From assembly GCF_003334255.1 (NCBI RefSeq), contig NZ_QOWU01000012.1: DNA of 64,000 bases, one strand, 5' to 3'. The position numbers and the translations under genes are program-made. Under the pieces are notes generated by a model that did not search any database, had not been told where the DNA came from, and saw only the letters and a program-made list of their open reading frames with translations. This DNA comes from Escherichia coli. GTDB taxonomy: Bacteria > Pseudomonadota > Gammaproteobacteria > Enterobacterales > Enterobacteriaceae. Shown one piece after another: positions 1-329 of this stretch (positions within the stretch are counted from its first letter, which is position 1; the number at the start of each line of letters is the position of its first letter).

Positions 1-329
1 GAATGGCGAAAAACGGGCTGTATGGTGTGAGCGTCAGACGGCTTGTTGGTGCCTGATGGCGGTCCTGCCGGATGCGCGGCATCTTCTGATGATTCAGAAG
101 GTGCAGATGATGAACAAAGACAGAGACCGGAGATACGGGAGAAAGCGTTACACCACAGGCGCAATGTGTTTCATGTTGTTTGTGTGGCTGGGTGGGGTGG
201 TGGCTCTTTTTACCGCGGCAGCTGTGTTGCTTCAGTAATCTGGCGGCAGTATTCGTCAGATTCGTTAACAGATATCCGGGCAGGCGTCACTGTTGACTGC
301 TGTCCGGGAAAAGACAGGGAAACCGGGGG

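Follow-up and report, generated by a model that had tools for sequence, protein, structure and literature searches.

The small open reading frame near the left edge of a 64,000-nucleotide stretch of Escherichia coli DNA (contig NZ_QOWU01000012.1; the whole stretch is called the window below) is, judging from the substitution pattern among its homologs, almost certainly a genuine protein-coding gene, orf-60. Our overall reading, to which we assign a probability of about 0.5, is that orf-60 encodes a real short tail-anchored protein that would serve as a small transmembrane modulator working with ORF-156, the product of the gene immediately upstream. By gene order and homology, orf-60 is the terminal gene of a fixed trio, eib/orf-156/orf-60, which forms a prophage cargo cassette and begins with eib, the gene for a YadA-like trimeric autotransporter adhesin. 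The gene itself is already catalogued, both as ORF-60A in GenBank (AF151091, year 2000) and as family phrog_9340 in PHROG, and apart from its cassette context it is a routine uncharacterised prophage small protein. New here are the comparative proof of coding, a corrected likely start, the transfer of the gene out of the role of "SPATE leader" and into the eib/orf-156/orf-60 cassette, and the assignment of ORF-156 to a structural type. The features of the locus are collected in Table 1.

Table 1. Features at the orf-60 locus. Positions are those of the window unless the L001 locus is named; position 8001 of L001 corresponds to position 1 of the window.
Feature	Position	Strand	Basis
orf-156, 156 aa, WP_001539080.1, annotated as hypothetical	L001 7586-8056; starts 414 nt before the window	+	
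3' end of orf-156; TGA at 54-56 overlaps the ATG at 56 (TGATG)	1..56	+	CDS WP_001539080.1
Rival TTG frame, 96 aa	43..333	+	ORF listing
orf-60 long form, 60 aa, ATG start	56..238	+	sequence identity to GenBank ORF-60A
17-codon N-terminal extension, found in two clades only	56..106	+	substitution pattern
AAGGTG resembling a Shine-Dalgarno site; ATG 107 follows after 3 nt and ATG 110 after 6 nt	98..103	+	
Conserved short form, 43 aa (42 aa from ATG 110): MMNKDRDRRYGRKRYTTGAMCFMLFVWLGGVVALFTAAAVLLQ	107..238	+	phrog_9340 match, dN/dS
Codons of the 26-residue hydrophobic tail, predicted single TM helix	158..235	+	hydropathy, alignment
TAA stop; also right boundary of the eib cassette module	236..238	.	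homology end
Intergenic spacer from orf-60 to the SPATE gene; only ~288-329 common to other Eaa-type SPATE loci	239..329	+	
EaaA-type SPATE, S6 peptidase autotransporter, 1335 aa; outside the conserved trio	330..4337	+	

Coding evidence, start site and distribution of orf-60

The first-pass annotation had described a 60-residue ATG frame with a basic middle and a hydrophobic C-terminal segment, overlapped by a weak frame at 43-333, and had allowed that it may be a chance ORF in the GC-rich leader of a SPATE gene. The frame is present exactly as quoted, and the overlapping TTG frame is there as well. Since the first 6 kb of the window hold 49 ORFs of at least 30 aa, the mere existence of the orf-60 frame proves nothing. 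Diverged copies were collected from E. coli chromosomes (loci L007-L016, L045 and L046), from phages GER2 and PhiR12_2 and from 20 IMG/VR contigs retrieved with a degenerate pattern of the orf-60 core, and together they represent 17 unique nucleotide versions. The check for frame-disrupting indels that had been proposed earlier left the target frame open in all 17, and the stop always falls directly after the hydrophobic segment. Across the core of 41-43 codons, pairwise dN/dS lies between 0.1 and 0.3 at a dS of ~0.5 to >1.5, which is near saturation. An excess of synonymous changes is observed in three independent pairs of copies (Fisher p=4e-7, 1e-7 and 3e-3), so that the conservation and synonymous-bias check was clearly positive. 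In the TM-coding part, the variable sites are distributed over the three codon positions as 13/6/26, and a comparison of L013 with L016 in this part yields 13 synonymous changes and 1 non-synonymous change. All five other frames gain stops in some homologs; the frame at 43..333 was rejected as a coding frame because it is interrupted by stops in five of them (L004, L006, L010, L013 and L016). The suggestion of a chance ORF is thus contradicted by the open frame and the low dN/dS. The description of the surroundings also had to be revised: the local GC content of 53.7% is unremarkable and similar to that of the neighbouring gene, and the window opens within the coding sequence of orf-156, with no untranslated leader there. 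Broken cassettes carry decayed copies of orf-60. The L015 copy, which lies within an IS-rich region, is frameshifted, and in P0032 the C-terminus is replaced and both eib and orf-156 are absent. A literature search for direct evidence of orf-60 translation, in the form of ribosome profiling, a tagged protein or peptides, found none.

Of the 60 residues described earlier, only the last 41-43, counted from about position 107 or 110, belong to the conserved protein, although the full frame does exist. The 41-43-residue form is common to all orf-60 clades, and the phrog_9340 profile, which has 43 positions, is matched over its full length (1-43 of 43) by residues 18-60 of the 60-residue form (E=3.8e-25). 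Within the extension, close relatives differ by 7 non-synonymous and 0 synonymous changes, and omega is 0.57 or undefined, compared with 0.12-0.22 for the core. Furthermore, the frame of the extension is closed by stops just 5' of the short form in the L011/L014, L013/L016, L023 and L046 lineages; in L013/L016, the ATG of the short form itself overlaps the orf-156 stop (ATGA). Inspection of the ribosome binding sites gave a mixed answer, in that the Shine-Dalgarno sequences of all start candidates are weak, but the AAGGTG before ATG 107 and ATG 110 (anti-SD duplex energy of -4.7 kcal/mol) is stronger than the site before ATG 56 (-2.8 kcal/mol). Based on the placement of AAGGTG, the stops in the extension and the span of phrog_9340, 107..238 (or 110..238) is taken as the conserved gene, and the short form initiated at ATG 107 or 110 is the probable main product. 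By its substitution pattern, the extension is under no detectable purifying selection, and it is probably an untranslated spacer or an optional extension.

The foremost alternative is that translation from ATG 56 yields the real product, the 60-residue form, either alone or beside a second one, through termination-reinitiation at TGATG. The overlap of this TGA and ATG is a classical coupling arrangement, yet the ATG is missing in clade B, where only GTG is possible, and its Shine-Dalgarno sequence is the weakest among the candidates. The first codons of the extension (VLPD) differ only synonymously between clades A and B and its sole indel is in frame, which would fit translation; the absence of synonymous changes among the 7 changes noted above, together with an omega well away from that of the core and the stops in four other lineages, speaks against it. 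Finally, GenBank and several gene callers pick versions of 57-62 aa, whereas the PHROG profile spans 43 positions. On balance, the 60-residue product is considered unlikely. Treatment of this small gene by RefSeq/PGAP is inconsistent across loci: orf-60 is left unannotated in window-type loci and in L012, L014, L016, L045 and L046, and elsewhere it is annotated at 41, 42, 43, 49 or 57 aa, with AF151091 at 60 aa.

The peptide encoded in the window is 100% identical over 60 residues to ORF-60A (L003 5657-5836, annotated orf-60A). A tblastn search of phage records showed that ORF-60A, ORF-60C and ORF-60D are already annotated in the entries for prophages P-EibA, P-EibC and P-EibD of E. coli ECOR-9 (AF151091, AF151674 and AF151675; protein AAF63236.1). 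As in the window, the ORF-60A gene of P-EibA overlaps the preceding orf-156 by one base and is followed by eaaA. The sequence is the same; the difference is that the entry uses the 60-aa start, whereas the comparison presented here favours 43 or 42 aa. The PHROG family, which is of unknown function, likewise covers only residues 18-60 of the ORF flagged by the first-pass annotation. The sequence is carried by 57 of 5426 complete E. coli genomes (~1%), at a median of 2 and a maximum of 6 copies; the window has one. Protein searches recovered 32 clusters with the single sequence and 45 with a profile, and these 45 are all hypothetical proteins, all from E. coli where named, with no weaker relatives. 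The degenerate core pattern, an exact pattern that may miss divergent relatives, had 0 matches in 100,044 species-representative genomes. There was also no match to plasmids by tblastn or to NCBIfam and PADLOC, the precomputed Pfam entry for all family members is '-', and sequence and profile searches of the PDB returned no relative. The Eib papers that were searched make no mention of genes downstream of eib.

The eib/orf-156/orf-60 cassette

Over its first 1400 bases, the window is 100% identical to E. coli chromosomes, such as NZ_CM142927.1, where the match falls on the right-hand end of a lambdoid prophage. Along that end, gpJ, lom and the tail-fibre gene are followed by a DUF4376 gene, the YadA-like gene, the gene for the 156-aa hypothetical protein and the S6 peptidase gene. 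The sequence upstream of the window, which had been singled out earlier as worth obtaining, thus holds orf-156 and before it eib, and is not a SPATE leader. In every locus with enough flank, an intact orf-60 comes after an orf-156 homolog (66-100% identity) and the C-terminal anchor of an Eib-type trimeric autotransporter. Homology to most other cassettes stops precisely at the orf-60 stop codon; for those of the L007/L008 type it ends at query position 199, which is position 238 of the window. Downstream of this point, the sequence differs between loci and holds an L0124-like gene, a gene for a 541-aa hypothetical protein, dinI or a host gene. Because the cassette homology ends at the orf-60 stop and the downstream genes are variable, orf-60 is assigned as the terminal cassette gene and not as a SPATE leader. 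The "SPATE upstream" framing of the first-pass annotation therefore does not hold: the gene is the last member of a cassette that is found also without a SPATE gene.

The association between cassette and SPATE is one-sided. A role of orf-60 as a SPATE leader peptide or uORF was considered and rejected, as a constant association with a downstream SPATE gene is not seen among the examined loci, and more of the examined cassettes precede non-SPATE genes (L004, L005, L006-L011, L013, L014 and L016). Conversely, all 8 of the 8 examined Eaa-type SPATE loci lie directly downstream of an eib/orf-156/orf-60 cassette, and they include L012, L023, L032, L045 and L046. Similarity of L045 and L046 to the window begins only at ~288, and only the ~40 nt before the SPATE ATG (window ~288-329) are common to the different arrangements. 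Among the SPATE loci, the spacer after orf-60 ranges from 49 to ~150 nt.

A terminator-like hairpin followed by a T-run is present between eib and orf-156 (L001 7520-7556), ~30 nt before the Shine-Dalgarno sequence of orf-156, and is also annotated as a stem_loop in AF151091. Since this hairpin leaves no room for a promoter before orf-156, we infer that orf-156 and orf-60 are probably expressed at a low level through read-through of the hairpin. A consensus scan found no promoter-like or terminator-like sites between orf-156 and the SPATE start, and eaaA in this locus may be co-expressed with orf-156 and orf-60 and depend on upstream transcription. Both eaaA and eaaC have been described as prophage SPATE genes linked to eib genes, with their expression untested (PMC3153244).

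A conserved hairpin, AAAAA GGGGAGC-loop-GCTCCCC, is present in most eib cassettes directly 3' of the orf-60 TAA (L004 3252-3280, L006 4178-4205, L007 2700-2728 and equivalents). This hairpin is absent after position 238 of the window and in L012, where the SPATE gene comes next. With its A-run 5' of the stem, it reads as a minus-strand or bidirectional terminator that marks the module boundary.

Several further observations concern the surroundings of the cassette. Past the prophage end, at ~5074-5190 of the window, is a C-terminal fragment of OmpW (…DPWVFMFSAGYRF), and next come yciE, yciF, yciG and trp genes; this arrangement indicates that the prophage integrated in ompW. A near-identical cassette is present in strain 2013C-3033 at another site (ykgJ/potB). 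The SPATE protein encoded in the window has the length of GenBank EaaA (1335 aa), and the near-identical copy in UCPROB-002 (L001 8330-12355) has 1341 aa, a difference that is due to an 18-nt indel in a Pro/Ser/Ala-rich linker. In L046, from strain JNEC-KY173, an insertion of the IS4 family (ISAba1-like) truncates eib upstream of the SPATE gene (L046 352-2112), and orf-156 and an unannotated orf-60 are intact beside it. Taken together, eib/orf-156/orf-60 is a compact mobile adhesin module that is often present in several copies per genome. The control of Eib and EaaA expression is poorly understood, and a dedicated regulator with a micro-membrane protein would be a natural starting point.

Predicted properties of ORF-60 and ORF-156

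The layout of ORF-60 supports its earlier likening to small membrane proteins. A basic N-terminus of 15-17 residues, with a net charge of +3 to +5 and the motif (K/R)(K/R)xYTxG, leads into a hydrophobic stretch of 26 residues that reaches the last or next-to-last residue and has a Kyte-Doolittle 19-residue maximum of 2.4-2.5. With fewer than 50 aa and one predicted TM helix, the protein falls within the small single-TM class. Within the tail, 12 consecutive residues are invariant (G-A-M-C-F-M-L-F-V-W-L-G), and the invariant positions of the short form are Y15, G18-G29, V31, A38 and A39. From charge and hydropathy, ORF-60 is predicted to be a tail-anchored inner-membrane protein with a cytoplasmic N-terminus and almost nothing in the periplasm, the N-in topology following from the positive-inside rule.

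Two other kinds of hydrophobic protein were considered. A lipoprotein was rejected, as ORF-60 has no lipobox of the form [LVI][ASTVI][GAS]C; at the position occupied by C in some clades, the protein encoded in the window has F, and the residue before that C is L rather than G, A or S. A phage holin or pinholin was rejected as well, as orf-60 is found past the tail-fibre genes, at the end of the prophage, and not in a lysis cassette next to an endolysin gene, and ORF-60 ends in its hydrophobic segment without the charged C-terminal tail of the holin layout.

The partner gene encodes an orphan protein, with 32 family representatives among 1.84 billion proteins. ORF-156 has no match in Pfam (including GerE), NCBIfam or PADLOC, and a sequence search of the PDB returned only noise. 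An AF2 model built from 16 homologs has a pLDDT of 91 and a pTM of 0.86, and in a Foldseek search the top 37 PDB matches are all response regulators of the NarL/FixJ type, the best of them being RcsB, FixJ, EvgA, DesR, VpsT, LiaR and NarL. The scores of these fold matches are modest (E from 1.5e-3, probability up to 0.98, TM 0.3-0.46). In the model, a four-stranded receiver-like domain is followed by a LuxR-type helix-turn-helix at residues 102-142. The phospho-acceptor pocket is incomplete: D52 is conserved, and an invariant T7-R8-N9 replaces the acidic pair after strand 1. ORF-156 is therefore described as a putative regulator composed of a compact pseudo-receiver and a LuxR-type helix-turn-helix. 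A relative with 32% identity gives a weak match to the sigma-70 region 4 HTH and adjoins a GerE gene. On the evidence of the model, ORF-156 would resemble the FixJ-LuxR regulators of adhesins, of the CsgD/VpsT/EcpR type, in combining a receiver-like domain with a LuxR-type HTH, and it too is encoded in an adhesin cassette. In contrast to these regulators, it is shorter (156 aa), its receiver-like domain has four strands and lacks the acidic pair, and its DNA binding is putative.

Candidate roles of ORF-60

MgrB, SafA, AcrZ and MgtR are very small membrane proteins whose targets are larger proteins of the membrane. Like these proteins, and like MgtS and PmrR, ORF-60 has fewer than 50 aa and a single TM helix and is encoded beside or within a regulatory or virulence operon. 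The resemblance to the MgrB/SafA class would be an analogy of mechanism and not family membership, as there is no sequence similarity; moreover, MgrB and SafA have a periplasmic tail, whereas ORF-60 has none. In the mechanism proposed here, the invariant cytoplasm-proximal half of the ORF-60 helix (GAMCFMLFVWLGG) would bind a partner inside the membrane, this binding would modulate the output of the adjacent regulator ORF-156, and the altered output would in turn shift expression of the adhesin and protease cargo. A specific intramembrane partner is suggested by the conservation of 12 consecutive helix residues despite saturated synonymous divergence. The functional link to ORF-156 is drawn from the constant adjacency of the two genes and from their start/stop overlap, and the ATGA in L013/L016 shows how tightly they are coupled.

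A regulatory partnership of ORF-60 with ORF-156 is nevertheless held only tentatively. Distant relatives of ORF-156 outside the eib context, where a small hydrophobic ORF was looked for beside the gene and none was found, have no ORF-60-like neighbour, which argues against the partnership. In addition, an AF2 model of an ORF-156-linker-ORF-60 fusion, computed with a paired alignment, is of low confidence (pLDDT 46.7, pTM 0.31) and gives no structural support for a direct contact between the two proteins. A bolder version, which we regard as rather improbable, is that ORF-60 represents a new E. coli-restricted family of tail-anchored micro-proteins whose helix would dock a host inner-membrane sensor or tether the orphan ORF-156. 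If true, Eib prophages would possess a switch of their own that responds to signals and controls the immunoglobulin-binding adhesin together with the EaaA protease linked to it.

Other explanations were ranked in the order of the 60-residue product discussed above, a membrane toxin or exclusion factor, a helper of autotransporter biogenesis and a non-coding element. The second of these would make ORF-60 a membrane-damaging toxin, or a prophage effector of superinfection exclusion or abortive infection, similar to type I toxins or small Sie proteins and regulated by ORF-156. A tiny single-helix hydrophobic protein encoded in prophage cargo next to the tail-fibre genes, a common site of exclusion genes and morons, would suit such a role, as would the adjoining gene for a putative DNA-binding protein, ORF-156. 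Like the type I toxins Hok/Gef, Ldr, TisB, Ibs and ShoB, ORF-60 is a short hydrophobic peptide with a single helix whose gene is carried by a mobile element. However, unlike these toxins, orf-60 is operonic with a protein gene, orf-156, and is not a stand-alone locus. No antisense RNA signal was found in a crude consensus scan of L001 5400-8600, which gave no promoter-like site on the minus strand. No PADLOC match and no toxin family of Pfam or NCBIfam was recovered. Most type I toxins have a charge layout opposite to that of ORF-60, in which the basic part is N-terminal and nothing follows the helix. The 12 consecutive invariant residues also suggest a specific partner rather than bulk damage to the membrane, and a toxin or exclusion factor is accordingly judged to be quite unlikely.

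Accessory proteins are known for trimeric autotransporters, as with SadB for SadA and TpgA for AtaA, and ORF-60 could in the same manner assist, from the inner membrane, in exporting or assembling the autotransporters encoded beside it, Eib and, where present, EaaA. The strict synteny of orf-60 with an Eib-type trimeric autotransporter and the position of every examined Eaa-type SPATE locus directly downstream of orf-60 are consistent with this role. It is, however, difficult to reconcile with the absence from ORF-60 of a periplasmic domain that could contact a passenger, and cloned eib genes are reportedly expressed and displayed on their own. The locus in which an IS element destroyed eib (L046) also retains orf-156 and orf-60 intact, and such a helper function is thus very unlikely. 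The last explanation treats the region as an ORF arisen by chance or as a non-coding element, either a leader RNA or a linker for DNA recombination, with conservation confined to the nucleotide sequence. It might draw on the omission of the region by PGAP in this locus and on the module boundary and recombination breakpoints within or beside orf-60, but is effectively excluded by the clustering of changes at third codon positions with a dN/dS of 0.1-0.3, by the orf-60 frame being the only one to remain open across homologs and by the lack of an Rfam match at the locus in a scan of window positions 1-6000.

Two mosaic forms of orf-60 were encountered during the comparison. In the orf-60 copy of L007 (2568-2699), from strain JNEC-KY173, the 5' half is identical to the window type and the 3' half is identical to the P-EibD type, which places a recombination breakpoint inside orf-60. 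A 44-aa chimera, P0077 (L047-L049 4001-4135), keeps the invariant helix core of ORF-60 behind an unrelated, non-basic N-terminus. This chimera is found on 12 contigs, where it lies between a Gp38_N tail-fibre gene and dinI, with neither eib nor orf-156. In P0077, the helix may act independently of ORF-156, or the copy may be a relic of recombination within orf-60.
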